Shown here: positions 21,826 to 64,000 of the stretch, in pieces
Position numbering within the stretch: position 1 is the first letter of the stretch
How the letters are laid out: the number at the start of each line of letters is the position of its first letter
Source: Eledone cirrhosa
Lineage: Eukaryota
Length of the DNA stretch: 64,000 bases
Reading direction: 5' to 3'
NCBI GenBank assembly: GCA_964016885.1
Contig: CAXHJY010000892.1
Location: 1 to 64,000, forward strand
Position numbers and translations under genes: made by a program
Notes under the pieces: model-generated
Databases searched by the model: none
What the model was told of the DNA's origin: nothing
The model's input: the letters and a program-made list of their open reading frames with translations, nothing else

Positions 21826-24800
21826 TTAGATGCAACATTTTTGGAATGTTTTACATATTTTTACTGTTCCATTAATGGATTGTACTTGTAATTTCCTAAC
21901 TAGTTGTGGTTTTTCTGTTCCTGTGAAGCCTAGCTTCTCAAGATTTGTATTGAGGCAGTTACTAACATATCCCAGTGCCCCAATAATCACAGGCATAAAT
22001 CTGAAGGTGTAATCAGGGTGGAGTATCTGCAGATTTCTCATCAGTTCTGCATAAATATTCTCCTGTTCACTAATCTTTGATATTATATTGGCATCTGCTG
22101 GGCAGCTAATTTCCACTACTGTGCATGTTTTCTTCTCCCTGTCCCATATCATATCTGGTCTGTTATGCCTGCATTTTATTGGGGTTTTTACTGGAACATT
22201 CTCTTTCATATTATGTACATGGATGTCTTCCACATTGTTGTAGCTTTTAATGTGTTTATCATCGGGGCTATCTTTTTTACGAACTGCATTGTACAGGGTT
22301 TTGGCCACTACATCATGCCTCATAGGTAGATAGTACCGCGATGACATCTTTGGACAGCTGCTGATGACATGGGTGATATCCTTGATGTTAGTTCTGCAGA
22401 GTCTGCACTTGTTATCACATCTAGGTGTTTTGCCTGCATCCCTATCTCTTTTGTGAATCAGGTATTTCGTGCTAATCTCCTGTTCCTGGATTGTAAAAGC
22501 GTATCCTTCAAAGTGGGAGCCAATATAGCGGTTGTTGGTCCAAGATAGACTACTTTCCTTATCTATATTACTCTCACTCTGGAGCTTCCTGGCAACATAT
22601 CCATGCATGAATTTTTGCTGATAGGCAGGCAGTTTTTTATCCATGGATTCACTGCGATACTGCTGAGCGACATCCCTGGGTGTGAGTTTTTGATTATCAC
22701 ACAGGGAATATCTCTCAAGGAGTTCCTTCCCAACTCCCATGATCTTATCTGTTTCATGCAGATAGACTTGCTCGAGAAGCGGGCTCCTACGCTTCGAGGT
22801 TCGTAGATGTTGTCGGAGAGATATGATGCGACATTCAAATGGTGTCTGGACTGATGTTAGGCCTCTGTCTCCCTGCTTACATTTCAAGTAAAGGCGGTCT
22901 ATGTCACTGTTGATGTGGAAGTTTCCGGTGTTGTTCAGTATTTTTCGAGTTCCAACATCAACTGCTCGGATTTCGTCTATCGTCCAATTGAGTATTCCAA
23001 ACGTTGGTGTTAGGACAGGCACAGCAAACACATTGTGAGCCACTGTTTTGTTTTGCGCAGAGAGTTCCGATGACCAGATCTTTCTTAATCGGGTGTAGTA
23101 TTCTCTGGTTACGCGTTCTTTATTACAGATACCATTATAGGATATGTTCTCATCTATCCCCAGGTATCTGTAGCAGTCCTCATCAGATATCGGTGAAACA
23201 GTTAGACCATTGATGACAATGTTGCTAGATTGGGTTGTTGTTTTTACCCGCTTTACAGTCATGTATGAGCATTTATCTTGGCCAAACTCCATTCCTATAT
23301 CCTTTGAGTACGTTGTAACCAGGTCAAGATTTTTCTTCATCCCATCCATGTTCTTGGCATAGAGTTTCAGCTCGTCCACAAAGAAGTTATGGGTTAGGTT
23401 CGTATTTCTGTCCTCCTGTGAGCCAATGATGTATCCCTCACATTTCTTGAGCAGAAAGGACAAGGGGTTTAATGACAAGATGAACAATATCACAGAGAGA
23501 CTGTGCCCCTGAAATATACCCCTGCAATATTTTATTTTATCAGTGAAAATAGAGTCCTCCCTCTCTGTCTTTAACCTTAGGATAGTAGCCCAAGAAGAAG
23601 ACAGCTTCTCTATGGCTCTGACAATAATGTCTGGGACTTTAGCAAGTTGGCGGGCCTCTATCATCCAAGAGTGGGGAACAGAATCGAAAGCTTTCCTGTA
23701 GTCCAGCCAGACTGTAGTCATATTCCTCCTAAGTTGTCGCACTTCCGACATCGCAGTTTTGTTGATTAGTTGTTCAGTACATCCCCAAACCCAAACCATT
23801 TTCTTTCCTGCTGCTTGTTCATCTGTGATGATGTTATTATTTTCACAGTGATCTTGGAGGAATAGGTTCAGGCAGGCTGTATACATCTTATACATCAGGT
23901 TCTGGCATGCAATGGGTCGGTAGTTTTTTGCCAAGTGGGTATCTTTGTTCTTGGGGACCAGTAATGTTTGTGCTAATGTCAACCATTCTGGTATAAGTGT
24001 ATCTCCCTTAAGAACTTGTTGGTAGAGGTCAGTAAGATACCTCCGATAAAATTAGTTTTTTGTACCAGTAGCCAATAATCATGTCTCTTCCTGGTGTTTT
24101 CTTATCTTCGAGTTTTCCTATCACAGTCTCAAGGGTACCCTCACTTATTTCGTATGTTTTTGTTGTAGTGTAGGAGCAATAGTTCTTTCGGATTTCCCTT
24201 AGCCACACTGGATCTTGGTTGAAATTCTTCTTTTCACCCTATATTTTTCTCCAAAAGGAATCTGTCTTTCTGGGATGGGACCTCAGTGACACTTATTATT
24301 TTGCCCTTCATATCTCTATAGACTGATGTTTGGTTTCGTCTGAATCTTTTATTAAGCATTTTTCTCTCGTCTACCGTCTTCGGGTATCAGCGTTTTTCGC
24401 TAACAGCTCTCAATTCTTATTTGAGGGTGATCAGCTTATATTGGAGAGTTCTGGTTCTATTGTTACCAAACATCGTCTCTATTTTATTTTTCACTCTTTC
24501 TTGGTGAGGAGTGAGGTTTTTTTGTGTTTGTTTGCATGTAAGGAGCATTGTCACATGTCCTGTTTTTTCGTAGGTCAGCACTCTTTTTTTCTATTTTAGT
24601 TATATACGATGATATTTTTGGTGGTGTTTTGTTCTTGTTAATATCTCTGCTATCACCAAGATAATGCTTCACTGTCATTGCTAAGGCATATAAACAGGCG
24701 TTGATTTGCCAAAATGTTGGGGTTTTTATCCGTCGTAAATATTCATCCCCTATTTCGTCAATAACACGTAGTATTTCATTATTTGGTTTTTTAATAAAGT

Positions 24801-54038: not shown

Positions 54039-54240
54039 CACAGTGCTGAGTATAAGCTCTACCAAGCTTAGTCACACGAACAATCGGATTCCTATTTTAA
54101 AAGGTATCTATATTTGAAGTGCTAGTTAAACTTTAATTGGTTACCTACCTAGCTATGTGTGCTTACATATTTTACAAATTATTCCCTGTGATTGTTCCAT
54201 ATGTTTATTTTGTATATATATGTCAATCTATTTCTAGTTG

Positions 54241-54815
54241 ATATATATGTATATATGTATATTTATACGTATGTATATATATATATGTATATATGTATAT
54301 TTATACGTATGTATATATATATATGTATATATGTATATTTATACGTATGTATATATATATATGTATATATGTATATTTATACGTATGTATATATATATGT
54401 ATATATGTATATTTATACGTATGTATATATATATGTATATATGTATATTTATACGTATGTATATATATATATATATGTATATATATTTATACATATGTAT
54501 ATATATATATATATATGTATATTTATACATATGTATGTATATATGTGAATATATATATATATATGTATATATGTATATTTATACATATGTATGTATATAT
54601 GTGAATATATATATATATATGTATATATGTATATTTATACATATGTATGTATATATGTGAATATATATATATATGTATATATGTATATTTATACATATGT
54701 ATGTATATATGTGAATATATATATATGTATATTTATACATATGTATGTATATATGTGAATATATATATGTATATTTATACATATGTATGTATATATGTAT
54801 GTATATTTATACATA
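54241..54815. repeat. AT-rich compound minisatellite
   Basis: Units such as ATATGTATATTTATACATATGTATGTATATATGTGAAT. Confidence 0.9.
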
Positions 54816-55470
54816 TCATCATCATCATCATCATCATCAACGTTTAACGTCCGTGTTCCACGCTTGCATGGGTTTGGACGGGGGTATTCCCACTTGAGGC
54901 AAGAGTGATTGTCTTGCTCGCATAGGACTGTCTGGCAGGTTTTCTACAGTTGGATGCCCTTCCTAACACCAACCACATTTACAGTGTGGGTCTGGGAGGT
55001 TTTTACCGTGTTGCCTACACGGCCACATTACAGCGTGGACTGTGTGTTTTTTTGTCGTGACACCTACACGATCTCATTTGTTTCGGCCTGGATGTTGTGG
55101 CACCAACATAACTTTACATAGGAGGGGTTGTGTGGATGGGGTGTGGGTGGTGGGACGGGGGTGTATTTTGTTAGAGATGCCTACTGGCTGTAGTAGGTTT
55201 TACTATGTATTTAGGTAAGGCGGGTCTTCTCTATTACTGAGTACCGCCAAAGGTCTCGGTCCAGTGACATTGTCTTGGAGAGGTGTAAGTGTGTGAGGTC
55301 GGAGTTTATCAGCTCGTCCCAGGTTTTTCTAGGTCTGCCTATTCCGTGGCTACCGTCTATCTTTATTGCCCTGCACTTTGTTATACAGCTATCGACTTTC
55401 ATGCGCATCACGTGTCCGTACCAACGTAGCCTTCTCTCGAGTAAACAACATCTGATCCCTCTTATTTCTA

Positions 55471-55476
<6 letters not shown>
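54816..55476 (-). mobile_element. RTE LINE family A, short 3' copy
   Basis: Highly similar to 1-526 and 5140-5890. Confidence 0.93.
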
Positions 55477-55513
<37 letters not shown>

Positions 55514-55517
<4 letters not shown>

Positions 55518-55841
55518 AGTCCCTGGTATTCGTGGGGTTACACTCCTAGAGCAACCGCGAAAATTGGACGTAGTCCATAAAAATGCCTAGAAGCGTAAAA
55601 ATATAATAAAAAATGAGGGACCGCCTTATGCAAAAGGGGTGTCCAATAGGCCAGCAAATATCATATTGTCATTAATAATTTAGCGTTAAAACATATATTT
55701 TGACACAAAAAGAGTCATTAAAAAATTGCAGAAGATATTTACGATTCCGCGAAGATGCGGTGGTTTCCATGAACAATTATTAATTAGGTTCTTATGAAAA
55801 TTTCGCGAATAACTGGGACCGCAAATGCCGAGGGTACACTC
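55514..55841. mobile_element. Tc1/mariner-superfamily (pogo/Tigger-like) MITE
   Basis: TA-CAATAGTCCCTGGTATTCGTGG...CCGCAAATGCCGAGGGTACACTC-TA imperfect TIRs. Confidence 0.6.
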
Positions 55842-57067
55842 TATATGTATGTGTGTATATATATATATATACACACAGCAGGGAAAAGCAGATGTAAAAT
55901 GATGATGATGCTGATGATGATATATATATATATATACACACACACACACGTATATGTATGTATATGTCTGTGATTGGAAAGGAAACCAATCACACACACA
56001 CACACACACTACTTCAAGTATAGGTCATATTGTTTCTCAACAGTTTACCATTCTCTATAGTGGCACCTAAGATTAAGCATGATTATTAGATGCCATAGAA
56101 AGGCAAAGTTTTGAGGGTATTCTGTAGTTGTTATATTAAATGTGGGATTTTGAAAGCTGAGGATAGCAAGACAAGTGATTCAAAAATGGAACTTTGTAAA
56201 GTTCTCGTTTTCGGTGTGTGTGAATGTGTCTGGCTTAGAAAAGGTACACTGTATCCCTGCATGTTGTAAAAATCAGTTAACCCTTTAACATTTAAACCAG
56301 TCGTATCTGGCCAGAATTCCCTCACCTCTTTCTGTTCAAACTGGCTGTAACCAGCTGCTCATACTGAGGTTAAGGTATTGTTCTCAACATACGTAATATG
56401 AAAATCTCATAGATTCATTATTATTTGAGATAATTTTGTGAGTTATAACCTTTACTATAAAAATCATCATCACCGTTTTACGTCCATTCTTCCACACTAG
56501 CATGGGTTAGACGGGTTGTCCTGTTGTGGGCAACGCCAGGTCAAGTGACTATGTCTTGCTCATAGAGAACTGATTTTGGCTTGATTTCTACAGCTGGATG
56601 CCCTTCCTAACACCAACCTCATTTACAGTGAGTACTGGGTGCTTTTTTTTACCGTGGCGCCTACACAACTGAAAATATAACAGTATATATAGAGTAATGT
56701 AAATGCCAAAGGGTTAAAAGAGTTGGTGCCAGGAAAGGCACCCAGCTGTTATACCAGTATGGAATGGTTCATGTAAAAATGATGATGATGGTAGTATAAT
56801 TGTAAATCTGAGCACTCGTAACGAGGACAGATGTTGGAAAAATGGAGCCACACAGATGCACGCTCAAATCTTTATGTCATTGGCTCTGCTGGGTCTCACC
56901 ACAATTTCTGTGCAATAAGAAGAGGATTATTCATCCCAGTGCACCATGGAAGACAACACAAGATGAACATTCTGTCTACCACTGCCACATACATAACACT
57001 GTCAATCATTTTTGGGAAGAGGGGAAATCATTTAAAACGACCCCAGTGCATATGTTACTGGTACTTT

Positions 57068-57581
<514 letters not shown>

Positions 57582-58028
57582 GAGTTAAAGAGAAACAGGT
57601 AAAGGAAGAGAGAAAAACGAAAGAAAACAAAGAAAGAAGGAAAGCAGGTAAGGATAGAAAGAAAGAAAAAGCATAGAAAAGGAAAGAGAGAAGGACATGG
57701 AGGAAGAATGAAAGGAAAAAAAGGAAGAAAGAACGGAAGAGAAAAAGAAAGAAAGATGGTAAGAAGAGAGAGAGAGAGAGAGAGCTGAGTCAGGTGTTCT
57801 GTGGTAGGTAATTTGTTGTATATAATAAACTCTGTGGAAAAGTGGTTGTTTTCTGGTTAAAATTACTACAAATAGACATTCCATCACGTTGCCCTTCAGT
57901 GCAACTGTCTGTCTCTCTTCACCTCTACTTGTCACCCCCTCTCTCTCACTATCTATCTATGTATTTGTCTATCTATCTATTTTCTCACTTTTACTATTTA
58001 TCTATCTCTGTGTCTGTCTATATATCTA

Positions 58029-58060
<32 letters not shown>

Positions 58061-58240
58061 ACTAAATTTAAAGCAAACCTATTACTTATGGTGAGCTACA
58101 CTGATTGAGTGCTGATTAAGAGGTCAATAAGATCAGATGCCGTTCCAGATTGTAGGTCAGTAGGTTCAAATCCCATGGGGGTAACTAGCCTATTGTGTTG
58201 TTCATATTATTAGTGTCCATTATAATTATTACTACTACTA

Positions 58241-58430
58241 GGGCGGTGGATTGGCAGTATCGGTAGAGGGTCGGACGCCATGCTTTGACGCATAGAGTTA
58301 TGGCCCTTGCCATTCTGAGTTAAAATCCCGCTGAGGTTAACTTTGCCTTTCATCCTTATGGGGTCGATAAAATAAAGTACCAGTAATACACTGGGTAATT
58401 GCTGGCCTTGTGCTAAAAGTAGAAACAATT
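58241..58430 (+). mobile_element. Full-length SINE family 1 with target-site duplication of about 21 bp
   Basis: A box TGGCAGTATCGG, B box, core; ATTATAATTATTACTACTACT on both sides. Confidence 0.9.
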
Positions 58431-58620
58431 ATAATTATTACTACTACTTAGCCCAATGTTTAACACAGCGAATAAGTAATCTTCAATTACGCACACACAC
58501 AAGTGTGTGTGTGTAATGCATGAAATTGCATGCTAGAAGGTGGCTGAATCGATAAAAATGCAGTTGTATGTTCAGCTTATGTAACTTTTTCTGCTAATAC
58601 TATATATATCATGTATCATA

Positions 58621-58817
58621 TCATCATTTTACGTCCGCTTTTCCCTGCTTGCAAGGGTGGGACGGGAACTGATTCTGGCTTGATTTCTACAGCTGGATGC
58701 CCTTCCTAACACCAACCTCATTTTACAGTGAGTGCTGGATGCTTTTTTGCCGTGGCACCTGCACGACCACTTTGCAGTGGTATGATAAGGACCCCAGTCC
58801 CTATCATCTCATTTCTA
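58621..58817 (-). mobile_element. SINE family 2, 5'-truncated (unedited comparator)
   Basis: Aligns with 2203-2394. Confidence 0.88.
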
Positions 58818-58833
58818 ATATATATATATATAT

Positions 58834-59083
58834 TTATGTAATAAACAACATAAGGCAACTACTCCATTTACCAGTGGTTTCCTAAAAGCAAAAAATTCCG
58901 CCTCCAATCATCAGAACGAAAAAATCCTGGTCTGTTTATTGAATTTGGATTCTAAAAACTTATTGAATCCAAATTCAATAAACAGACCAGGACCCTTCCA
59001 CTCCGATGACCGAAAGCAACATTTTTTGCTTTCAAGAAACCACTGGTAAATGGAACAATTGCCCTATGTTGTTTATTACATAA
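58834..59083 (-). ncRNA. Fold-back (119-bp arms, 12-nt loop) of two divergent hammerhead motifs; G.U-rich hairpin on the - strand
   Basis: Arms 58834-58952 and 58965-59083 are ungapped; CTGATGA or CCGATGA...GAAACCACTGGTA in each. Confidence 0.8.
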
Positions 59084-59157
59084 CTATTAAGCTCTGTTAC
59101 CTACATAGAGCACTCTTTTTTCCTGGACTTTTCCGACGGAATTACTTCACATATATT

Positions 59158-59223
<66 letters not shown>

Positions 59224-60479
59224 TTGTAAATTGTGGATCCATTGAAAATATGATTAGGTATATCTAATGTATAAGGCAGTGAATTGGCAGGGTCATTAGA
59301 ATGTCGGGTAGAATGCTTTATGGTACTCGTTCTAGCTCTCTGAGTTCAAATAACGCCTCGAAAGGATGAAAGGCAAAGTACTGGGGTCGATTCTTCATTT
59401 ATCTGGAAGAAATCTGCTGTACTTAGGCCTAGAGCGGGATGGGCCCCGCCAGGCTTAAAATGCTCAAGAAAAGCCGTATGTCAATACAGCGCCTCTACAA
59501 CTCTATCAGGAGTTACGGGATCATACCATACCATATCTAACATATATATATGAATGCATGTATTTAAGTGAATACATATGTCTTAGTGGTTAGGGTGTGG
59601 TGAAAGTTGATTAAATTGACTCCAGTAATTGACTGGTACTTTAATTTATCAAACTTGAAAAGATAAAAAACCAAAGTAGGCTAGCAGTGCTGGCTCCGTG
59701 TCTAAAGCCACAATTGGTCACTTAAATTCCTGCAGATTAAGGGACTGATCTTAGCATCTGTCCACCTCGGCAATTGTTCTCAAAATAAATAATATCAAAA
59801 TGTCATAGATTTGATATTATGAGAGATAATTATGTAAGATAAAGTGTTTATTACAAAAATACAATCGTATATATAGAGTAATGCAAATGCTTCAGGGTTA
59901 AATAGCCACTCCAACTCGCAGAGCTCACTCCGGCAGATGGCCAACTCCGACCTGATAACAGTCAGTAGGGAGGTTGTTTAGGGACCAAAGAATACCAGAA
60001 CTATCCACTTCTACAAGCTTTCTATCGGAAAGTAGCCGATACTTCAACAGTTTGTGATCTTCAGGTTGTTGGGCAGGCAATGGGCAATGATGCCTGGGTT
60101 TGTCTATATACAGCTAAACAGACTGAGCTAATTGTCAGTTAAATGTCCTGGCTACTGACACAGCACTCTATCAACAAGAGGTCAACAACTGCTGACCTCT
60201 CTATACAATTTAGTTATGTCTCTGTACATTCCAAGTGTCAAGTCCTTTGCTTTTCACACTGTGGGAGGAAGAGATACTGAGAGGTTGGGGGGGGAGGGAG
60301 GGAGGAAGCCATACTGAGAGGCGGAGAGAGGAAGGAGGGGAGGTGGTGGGGGAGGTCAATAAACTAATTAACAGCAATATAAATGTTGTTGATTTAAACA
60401 ACTGTAGTGTAAATTTGTGGCAGTGTGCCAGTGTAAGGAATTATTAGCTGGTTGGCCAGTCTTCTTGCAGTGTTTGTTT

Positions 60480-61370
60480 AGTAACAGCCCTTTACATTCC
60501 TAGTTCAAATCCCACCGAAGACAGATTTTTTTCTCATTCTTCCAGTGGCCAACAAAATAAAGTACCAGTCAAATACTAGGGTTGATTAATTGACTTTATC
60601 CTGTCTTCCAAATCGCTGGTTTAGTGCCTAAAATAGACACTATTATCATCATCATCATCAGAGCGGTGGTTTGGCAGCATCGGAAGAACATCAGAAAACA
60701 TGCTTTGTGGCATATAGTTATGTTTCTTTACGTTCCAGGCCCAAATCCTGCCATGGCCAGCTTTTCCCTTCATCCTTACGAAGTAGATAAAACAAAGTAC
60801 CAGAGATGCACTGGGATTGATTCAATCAACTTTCCCATACTCCAAAATCATTGGCCTTGTGCCTAAATTAATTTTGGGGGGAAGGGGAAAGTCGACTAAA
60901 TCAACCCCACCGCATGACTGGTACCCCACTTTATCAACCCTGTAAAGATGAAAGGCAAAGCTAACCTCAGCAGGACTCGAACTCAGAACGTAAAGGGCTG
61001 TAACTATATGCCACAAAGTACGACGTCCAACGCTTTAGGCACAAGGCCAATAATTTTGGAGAGAGGGGAATGTTGTTTAAACTGACCCCAGTGCATTACT
61101 GGTACTCTATTTTATCGACCCCGTAAAGATGAAAGGGAAAGCTCACCTCGGTGAGACCTGATCTCAGAATGTAAAGAGTAAAAAAAGATATGCTTTAACA
61201 ATTCTGCTAACCGACTGGCTTGGACCTGGTGCTTTATTGTTTTTCAGAGCTCATAGGGATGAAATAAATGCAAAGTAGACTTTGGCGGGATTTGAAATCA
61301 GAGAGCAGAGTGGGAACAAACACTGCAAGGTATTTAATTAATGCTCTAATGACTCAGCTAATTTATTGCC
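60480..61370. mobile_element. Cluster of about five SINE family 1 copies, first on + then on -
   Basis: Repeated B-box, core and tail motifs; orientation switch at about 60870. Confidence 0.8.
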
Positions 61371-62127
61371 GGTGTAATAGACGTTAAAACAAAACGAGAA
61401 AAAAATTTTGCAAAAAAATAAATATACGAGTATCAAAAAAATACAGGTTTCAATGAGAATGTGTCTGTCTGTGTGTCTTTAAGAGCTTTTTTTTATTTTT
61501 TATTTTACTCTTCTTTTCTTTTCTGTTCCGACGGGCGAAAAACTTGCAGAGTTTCCCAGGGAATTGTTTGAATAAAACAAAAAATGAACTGTGTTCACCA
61601 TTGACTGAAACTTTGTTTTGTCTTTCTGACAAATTTCGGAAATAGCATAAAACAGGTTCCACACACATACATACACAATATTGTGTGTGTGTGTATTTGT
61701 GTGAGTGCATGTGTATGTGTATGAATGTGTGTATGTTTGCATGTGTCTGTATGTGTGTGAGTGTATGTATGTCTGTGTGTGCATGTGTCTGCGTGTGTAT
61801 GTGCATGTGTGTGTGAGCATGTATGTGTATGTGTGTGAGTGTATGTGTGTAAGCGTCTGTCTGTATGTGTGTGAGCATGTGTGTGTGCATGTGTCTGTAT
61901 GTGTCTGCGTGTGTGTGTGTGTGTGAATGTATGTGTGAATGTACATGCGTAACATGTGTACATTTGGTAAAAAACATAAGCAGAAATTAAAGAATGTTTT
62001 TGTGAATACCACACATTCACACACATCTATGTGTGAAAGTGTGGTGAAAATATAAGTAGCAATTACATAAGGTTTCATGAACATCATACACACATTTATC
62101 CATACACATATATCTGTGTGTGTGTGA

Positions 62128-62181
<54 letters not shown>

Positions 62182-62961
62182 TCACATGCACATATATACA
62201 CACATAAAGTGCCTCAGCATGGCCGCAGTCAAATGATTGAAGCAGATGACAGAATAACCCCTATCCACACACACAAGTGTGTGAGTGTGTGTATATATTA
62301 TATATATATATAAAGACTACAATAAAGTCATTTTCCACCACCTCGACTTTTTTCTCTCATCGTTGTTATATATATATAATAAATAATAAAGAAACCATTA
62401 TTGCTGTTATTGTTCATTGTGGGGTGTGACTGTGGTGGTGAACATCTAGAAGGAAGGAGTGGAGAAGTAAACAGCTGTGGGGGCTAAATGGATATGGATA
62501 AAATATGTATAGGGGTCTATATGATGATATGATCCCTCATACCCTTTAGCATTTACATTACTCTATATTTACTATTATATTTTCATAGTAAAGGCTTTAT
62601 CTCACATAATATCGAATCTATGAGATTTTGATATTATTTATTTTGAGAACAATACTATAACATCAGTATGAGCAGCTGGTTACAGTCATTTTGAACAGAA
62701 GGGCGAGAGTTTAAAAGCTAAACGGTTAAATGGCTTTGAGGGTGTAACCCAGTATTGTCACAGTTTCATGACTGAAACCAGTAAAAAAAAGAATAATAGA
62801 AAAATGTATTTCATAAGAAATATGGTAAACAAAACTGTTAAACCGAGTGAGAGAATACTTCAATCACCCAGTGTGTAGTTGGGTGGTCAATAACCTTTCC
62901 TAATGGAAAACAGTGTCATGCCCCTGCATGGCCACAGTCAAATAGCTGAATCTACTAAAAG

Positions 62962-62995
<34 letters not shown>

Positions 62996-63004
62996 ACTTC
63001 TATA

Positions 63005-63166
63005 TCGGGGTTTGCCAAATATTTTCAAATGCGGAACCTTTTTTGGTTCAGAAACTTTTGTCTAATACTGTTATATGGTTATAATATAAATATACTCCTC
63101 TCCCTTTTTTTACGGAGCCCCAGACACTGCTTTGCAGAACCCGCGGAACCCACTTTGGGAACCACT
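63005..63166. mobile_element. hAT-like MITE remnant
   Basis: End CACTTTGGGAACCACT resembles Charlie-type CAGTGGTTCCCAAA termini. Confidence 0.5.
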
Positions 63167-63515
63167 ATTCTATGCCTTGCTTCTTCAACTTAAACTCTAG
63201 ACATCCAGTAAATGATCTGCAAAACATATCTAAAAGCAGATTTGTTAATTCAAATGTCTACAGAATCTTTACTGGTGGACAGATTGTTGTGAAAATTTGC
63301 AATCTTATGATTTTGATGTTATATAGTTATTGTGCTATGAATGTCTTGCCAATGTGGTTTCATGTGGTACAGGACATTAAGAGTTAAGTAATCCGATCCA
63401 GGTCCTATTTATTGAAACTTACTCAACTGCAAACATTCAGAGCCCCACCCACTATTCCACACTGAAGATTCACAACACACGCTTATATATTTTTTTCTTT
63501 TTCTTTTTTACTTAC

Positions 63516-63600
63516 AGGCGGGCATTGATCTGCAAATGTTCAGCCTGGGCCACAATCGCCCCATAGTTCTTAACAATCTGGGAGGGTTTACAAAGGCCAT
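63516..63600 (-). CDS. Candidate first coding exon with a mitochondrial-presequence-like peptide
   Basis: ATG..MAFVNPPRLLRTMGRLWPRLNICRSMPA then donor GTAAGT; five Arg, no acidic residues; no homology evidence. Confidence 0.3.
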
Positions 63601-63691
63601 TGGTACACTACTTTCCACCACCACCACCACCACCACTTCAGTAAAAACGTCAACCTCAGCCTCGTGAAAAAATTAATTTAAAAAAAAAAAA

Positions 63692-64000
63692 ATATATGTA
63701 TGTATATATGTGAATATATATATATATGTATATTTATACATATGTATGTATATTTATACATATGTATGTATATATGTGAATATATATATATGTATATTTA
63801 TACATATGTATGTATATATGTGAATATATATATATGTATATTTATACATATGTATGTATATATGTGAATATATATGTATGTATATATGTATATTTATACA
63901 TATGTATGTATATATGTGAATATATATGTATGTATATATGTATATTTATACATATGTATGTATATATGTCAATATATATATATGAATATATATGTATGTA
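63692..64000. repeat. AT-rich compound minisatellite, same unit as 54500-54815
   Basis: Directly visible. Confidence 0.9.

Follow-up and report, generated by a model that had tools for sequence, protein, structure and literature searches.

One-sided A-to-G changes in two RNA-foldable repeats of Eledone cirrhosa suggest LINE-mediated copying of an ADAR-edited transcript

The question raised by a fold-back in the DNA of Eledone cirrhosa is why nearly all mismatches between its arms are of one kind. The fold-back lies at positions 58834–59083 of the window (the whole stretch of 64,000 nucleotides analyzed here) and consists of two ungapped arms of 119 bp each, 58834–58952 and 58965–59083, around a 12-nt loop (58953–58964), with every position i paired with position 117917−i. 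The original prediction had counted 20 differences between the arms, 19 of them A.C on the plus strand, none the reverse and one a transversion, and re-pairing of the arms returns exactly these numbers: 19 A.C (G.U on the minus strand), no G.T, and one T.C at 58897/59020, a family variant already found in the donor locus described below and in 6 of 48 arms of the same repeat family. Pairing is indeed kept on the minus strand, as had been claimed: it folds into a single near-complete stem at −175.4 kcal/mol (z −27, 0 of 200 shuffles), against −127.5 kcal/mol for the plus strand. Six-frame translations of the arms gave nothing coherent with respect to coding potential. The skew is not a background property of such palindromes; 39 others of the same family, comprising 4,549 paired bp, hold 8 A.C, 11 G.T, and 32 transversions with at most three transition-type mismatches each, and the A.C skew of the hairpin is unique among the sampled family palindromes. 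Seven further skewed palindromes (L005, L007, L020, L048, L049, L076, and L077) proved to be microsatellite effects where inspected.

Polarized against 46–48 sister arms, each of the 19 transitions reads as A-to-G on the minus strand, with no C-to-T among them, and the comparison with the donor again gives 19 of 19, with eight changes in the left arm (58859, 58862, 58882, 58898, 58899, 58902, 58904, and 58917) and 11 in the right arm (58993, 58994, 58995, 58998, 59001, 59004, 59010, 59011, 59033, 59056, and 59064). The direction proposed for several of these sites from the hammerhead core thus holds for every one of them, including the two that had been thought to fit C-to-T better. Both arms were changed on the same strand though they hold the element in opposite orientations, which requires one molecule spanning the two. 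An origin of the arm differences from two pre-existing subfamilies, which the original prediction had named as a refuting outcome, was ruled out, as no sister arm carries the whole set of changes.

The donor was found by a search with the loop junction, which gave one other exact match among 40 scored candidates, at C18:27274301–27274368. This locus carries the same hairpin with the same flanks and the same 12-nt loop, unedited, and the one-sided extension of the hammerhead element next to it (59084–59148 on the plus strand), which is unpaired and ends in (CA)/(TA)n, shows no substitution between the two loci. The similarity extends far beyond the hairpin: positions 54817–63691 (minus strand) are a collinear, unspliced copy of C18:27270591–27279024, 8.9 kb in the window and 8.4 kb on C18, and the hairpin is a passenger inside this copy of about 9 kb. 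There is no intron-sized loss. Copy and donor differ most at 57066–57580 (plus strand), where a (GAT)n array of about 520 bp stands in place of about 100 bp of the donor, made up of flank and a mixed GAT/GAG/GAA repeat, for a net gain of 416 bp. An A-run at 62962–62990 is 25 nt longer in the copy; both expansions possibly reflect reverse-transcriptase slippage or arose later. A T>C at 59730 makes a PstI site that is missing in the donor and provides a marker for the copy. For the 691 bp of 63000–63690, only the copy itself and the donor were full matches among the 40 scored. The copy sits on an unplaced contig of 98 kb, which is not a haplotig of C18, because homology is confined to about 9 kb. 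Besides the unedited fold-back, the donor contains two SINEs in inverted orientation, followed downstream (minus strand) by an RTE 3′ end of 650 bp that lacks a promoter. A search for a host gene of the donor, with 80 of 153 filtered open reading frames from 200 kb of C18 compared with Pfam, found none, recovering only RT-type matches and one weak sub-threshold match; short exons could escape it.

Comparison of copy and donor gives 59 substitutions on the plus strand, namely 46 T>C, 3 A>G, 4 C>T, 3 G>A, and 3 transversions, a count that leaves out the GAT array (57060–57590) and two T>C at a CA/TA boundary (59176 and 59178). Minus-strand A-to-G thus outnumbers its reverse by 46 to 3 (p 7e-11), and outside T>C the background amounts to 13 substitutions, with a divergence of about 0.2% away from the edited stems. 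The excess is concentrated in two places: 40 of 192 minus-strand adenosines (about 21%) are changed in two stems, compared with 6 of 2,411 outside them (p 6e-41). Nineteen of these edits fall in the hammerhead hairpin and 21 (60731–60978) in a second hairpin at 60703–61018 (minus strand), which is formed by the inverted SINE pair, an unrelated repeat about 1.7 kb from the fold-back. The two edited stems are the donor's two longest local inverted repeats, and distant inverted pairs such as 56330–56433/62597–62700 hold no A-to-G change. Within the two hairpins, no edit is found among 18 loop or bulge adenosines or among the 27 loop-proximal pairs of the hammerhead hairpin. This pattern, with 19 of 19 hairpin changes A-to-G and confined to the stem, gives strong support to the proposal that a single hairpin RNA was edited by ADAR in both of its arms and then reverse-transcribed.

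The finer footprint of the changes was also inspected. Stem edits fall at A-U pairs in 34 of 40 cases and at A.C mismatches in 6. In the SINE stem, A.C mismatches are edited more often than A-U pairs (6/8 vs. 15/78, p 0.002), although this test is partly circular if five donor-variant sites arose as later C-to-T changes in the donor; neither of two A.A mismatches nor the one A.G is edited. ADAR1 and ADAR2 prefer a C opposite the target A (PMC10713624). The SINE paralogues agree with the donor at 16 of the 21 edited sites and with the copy at five, and these five are five of the six edited A.C sites; either the donor had mutated there before the copy was made and editing restored the family base, or it mutated afterwards, for which the background predicts about 0.2 events per 316 bp. 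A 5′ G is edited in 3 of 28 cases against 37 of 159 (p 0.10) and a 3′ G in 9 of 28 against 31 of 159 (p 0.11), both in the expected direction and not significant; a 5′ A is edited in 21 of 80 cases, and a 5′ U in 8 of 40, which is no enrichment. In metazoan transcriptomes, ADAR hyper-editing of young inverted repeats disfavors a 5′ G (PMC9989829).

Other repeats are found in and around these sequences. The window holds an inverted pair of LINE 3′ ends at 97–653/5007–5563 (557 nt, 99% complementary, 4.4 kb apart), a potential double-stranded RNA substrate, and a 741-aa reverse transcriptase reading frame (21826–24051, minus strand; Pfam RVT_1), whose C-terminal motifs we take to resemble those of a restriction-like endonuclease LINE of the R4/Dong type. 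At C919:69401–70500 lies a very young repeat of about 1.06 kb, 98–100% identical, which occurs in tandem arrays at many loci on different chromosomes.

The ends of the copy bear on how it was made. On the minus strand, homology ends exactly at the tail of a 5′-truncated RTE-type LINE 3′ end (54817–55476, minus strand), which comprises the last 87 codons, the 3′ UTR, and a (CAT)n tail (as read on the plus strand) with seven units in the copy and three in the donor, and which is the putative RNA 3′ end and priming site. Identity is at least 99% for each of the 40 copies of this 3′ end that were scored, with the donor's the closest among them, so that the family appears to be very young. A longer, frameshifted family copy nearby, at C919:64466–67843, encodes APE, RT, and PHD domains, and a related LINE at C919:70836–73958 has an uninterrupted reading frame of 1,040 aa with APE, RT, and PHD. 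The clade name RTE is presumptive, from the domain order and the tail. Most sister RTE tails abut TA-rich repeats, as judged by eye. Active RTEs have been reported in Octopus (PMC9115989).

The copy is flanked by the two halves of a TA-rich compound minisatellite, the inferred target, at 54240–54816 (start approximate) and from 63692 to the window end at 64000, slightly beyond which it continues. Of 82 diagnostic 25-mers, the flanks have 49 in common, along with an exact match of 91 nt; none occurs in 97 other loci or in the donor flanks. As the same minisatellite is present on both sides and absent at the donor, the insertion likely split or amplified one array. At the 5′ end of the copy (63680–63691, minus strand), a donor A12 run (T12 on the minus strand) is fused directly to the minisatellite. 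A clean target-site duplication is absent; a 16-nt candidate (63692–63707 = 54791–54806) stops 10 nt short of the tail. Searches for an empty-site allele with the left and right flanks gave dispersed repeats only among the scored matches. Judged from these junctions, the ends point to an RTE-type LINE, rather than Penelope, as the copying machinery, and the anatomy of the copy would be that of a LINE-mediated 5′ transduction.

The strongest of the alternatives, though an improbable one, is that 9 kb were duplicated as DNA and acquired the A-to-G changes later in place, through gene conversion from an edited cDNA or through the action of ADAR on an RNA:DNA hybrid. In such hybrids, A-C mismatches can be a target of ADAR1p110 (PMC7955049), a short TA-rich repeat next to the donor's own tail could have served recombination, and the missing clean duplication of the target would also fit. 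Such a duplication would nevertheless have had to stop exactly at the LINE tail, add tail units, and bring along no donor flank, and 34 of the 40 edits lie at A-U pairs rather than at mismatches. The edits moreover track intramolecular minus-strand stems in two unrelated repeats 1.7 kb apart, and the mere 13 substitutions other than T>C leave little time for a second event.

Somewhat less probable again is an artefact of assembly or sequencing, in which RNA reads leaked into polishing, palindromes caused base-calling errors, or the small unplaced contig is itself at fault. We compared reads and contigs of sequencing runs over 58600–61100 of the window. In run X1, two contigs are identical to the edited SINE stem (60697–60907 at depth 11.5 and 60880–60957 at depth 9.4), spanning 19 of its edits (60731–60929) at single-copy depth, and a donor-type contig covers 59853–60576 at depth 11.8 in X1 and 11 in X2, which derive from the same sample. 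As edited and donor-type contigs are both found, both versions are present in one sample, which argues against an artefact, as do the 39 clean family palindromes in the same assembly and the copy's possession of flanks and junctions of its own. On the other side, the contig is unplaced, and the edited C at 58917 and 59056, the two readable hairpin sites, appears in no X1 or X2 contig examined. Its loss may be due to bubble-popping or to low-depth branches being dropped against a family path of roughly 10^4–10^5 depth. X1 and X2 look genomic, since their depth is even over unique non-coding sequence and rises very high over repeats; RNA editing, being heterogeneous, would hardly give one fixed pattern at a depth of about 10. 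RAD reads crossing 59056, seen in bulk rather than singly, are non-T in 9 of 12 plus-mate reads in X6 and 2 of 5 in X7, a weak hint against an artefact and towards the copy being shared by these two other samples.

The family of the hairpin arms suggests a different machinery for the same editing. It is a young, often palindromic repeat (976 candidates, of which 40 were scored), with at least 39 near-perfect hammerhead-bearing palindromes of 110–120 bp (L005, L010, L026, L034–L052, and others), and the varied loop junctions among family palindromes would represent many independent fold-back insertions. The arms carry a type I hammerhead motif (CUGANGA/GAAA core, NUH site), and the minimum free energy fold of a donor arm has stems I and II and a short stem III. 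In the copy, the sense hammerhead lies on the minus strand in the left arm, at about 58861–58921, with an intact CTGATGA core and a predicted cut between 58869 and 58868; that of the right arm is antisense in a minus-strand RNA. A comparison with Rfam returned microsatellite and hairpin noise only, with no hammerhead match in the window at E≤1 and none in the donor arm at E≤10. The element is followed at its ends by TA/CA-rich sequence in 69 of 75 cases, with overlapping loci kept in the count. Two tight pattern searches for a second clearly edited family copy gave two matches each, one of them this locus. A candidate, L143, was rejected as a subfamily variant. The older family copy L145 (C4:4585994–4586014 and flanks) has 10 A>G and 1 T>C among 26 differences; it was picked on two of these, and is ambiguous, though possibly an older edited copy.

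The derivation of the hairpin from a Penelope pLTR, as originally predicted, stands with respect to the type I hammerhead and the Penelope-like architecture. As for a PLE reverse transcriptase linked to the family, among reading frames of at least 110 aa upstream of the arms, in 82 loci of about 3 kb whose translations were read by eye, no PLE RT/GIY-YIG was recognized. That the edited RNA was copied by Penelope-like machinery recognizing the hammerhead element is very unlikely. The hammerhead fold, the inverted truncated copies, the one-sided extension, and the TA-rich ends are features described for PLEs (PMC8557442), and speak for it; against it, besides the unseen PLE reading frame, stand the internal position of the hammerhead element, about 4 kb from either end of the copy, and an RNA 3′ end that is an RTE tail. 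Equally unlikely, and to judge from the donor comparison already largely refuted, is the other half of the original prediction, that selection kept an endo-siRNA precursor paired by admitting only G.U-forming changes: the minus strand is almost fully paired, but none of the 19 changes is C-to-U despite 35 G-C pairs open to pairing-preserving C-to-U (a chance of about 0.001, from (83/118)^19), the stem has lost stability relative to that of the donor (−174 vs. −181 kcal/mol), 19 changes per 250 bp contrast with about 0.2% divergence elsewhere, and the unrelated SINE hairpin bears the same signature, its A.C-to-G-C repair following the preference of the enzyme.

The explanation we favor, with a probability of about 0.87, is that an unspliced read-through RNA was hyper-edited by ADAR and inserted elsewhere by the reverse transcriptase of an RTE-type LINE as a 5′ transduction. 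Its course would start from the C18 donor with its unedited fold-back, its SINE pair, and its promoterless RTE 3′ end, from which a minus-strand transcript of at least 8.4 kb is likely to have run from an upstream start through to the RTE tail. Because the antisense arm is transcribed first in this RNA, the sense hammerhead is predicted to be trapped within the 119-bp stem and to escape self-cleavage, which would explain how an intact 8.4-kb RNA survived. The pattern of changes suggests that ADAR then acted on the two longest local stems and deaminated about 21% of their adenosines, and the G.U-only skew would be a by-product of A-to-I on one strand rather than a selected structure. From the ends of the copy, we infer that RTE protein supplied in trans began reverse transcription at the tail, within the TA-rich minisatellite, and read inosine as G. 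Edited letters of the SINE stem are found in public sequence data at single-copy depth, consistent with this final product.

A-to-I editing is treated as a transient change of RNA. Here, a clean donor/copy pair displays about 43 excess A-to-G changes acquired by DNA in one step, where ADAR acts on folded RNA. If real and germline, this would lead directly from RNA editing to heritable sequence. One nuclear RNA would then have been encountered by both ADAR and an active LINE, in germ cells or in early embryos, and a LINE tail lacking a promoter would be able to carry along more than 8 kb of the DNA upstream of it. The frequency of such write-back of editing becomes testable, as donor-copy pairs can be counted genome-wide. 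We consider the odds about even that, in this RNA-editing-rich animal, long nuclear RNAs that were edited by ADAR and left unspliced are copied into the germline by LINE machinery so frequently that RNA editing becomes a genuine source of DNA mutation. Each insertion would then preserve, over several kb and from a single molecule, what was transcribed and edited in the germline, and could be read by comparison with the donor that survives; the same route might now and then fix recoding edits in retrogenes. It should be noted that this particular copy is non-coding and without sign of function.

In a literature search covering mainly open-access papers, we found no report of an ADAR-edited host RNA retrotransposed by a LINE into an animal germline; the nearest case is that of A-to-G hyperedited avian retroviruses, as reviewed in PMC12925331. 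These likewise show A-to-G clusters in an inverted-repeat region of an RNA undergoing reverse transcription, but according to the review they are exogenous, and nearly 50% of stem adenosines are changed, compared with about 21% here. In Eledone, a host nuclear RNA of genomic repeats was apparently copied into a chromosome by a non-LTR element, with the unedited donor surviving. The "DNA editing" of vertebrate LTR retrotransposons by APOBEC (Knisbacher and Levanon, PMC4866542) is also one-directional, acquired during retrotransposition, fixed in the genome, and found by comparison of source and daughter copies. It differs in being G-to-A, from C-to-U on cDNA, and in concerning LTR elements of vertebrates; the sections of that paper bearing on this question use invertebrates as a negative control and leave ADAR unmentioned, whereas the present changes are A-to-G, confined to RNA stems, and acquired by way of a LINE.

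The anatomy of the copy resembles the 5′ transductions of LINE-1 and SVA, in which a transcript initiated upstream is retrotransposed through the 3′ end of the element and upstream DNA is duplicated (PMC4859970); here, in contrast, an RTE fragment of 650 bp without a promoter serves as carrier, for a cargo of 8.2 kb that records RNA editing, and the target is a minisatellite. The hairpin family shares with Penelope-like pLTRs and non-LTR retrozymes (PMC8557442; bioRxiv 10.64898/2026.07.22.740005) the type I hammerhead, the inverted 5′-truncated copy, the one-sided extension, and the microsatellite targets described there; this likeness covers the hairpin family alone, a passenger in the present copy, for which no RT/GIY-YIG partner was found here. 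Metazoan ADAR hyper-editing likewise gives clustered A-to-I in inverted young repeats, and as described in PMC9989829 it appears there as differences between RNA and DNA, whereas here the changes stand in the DNA itself.
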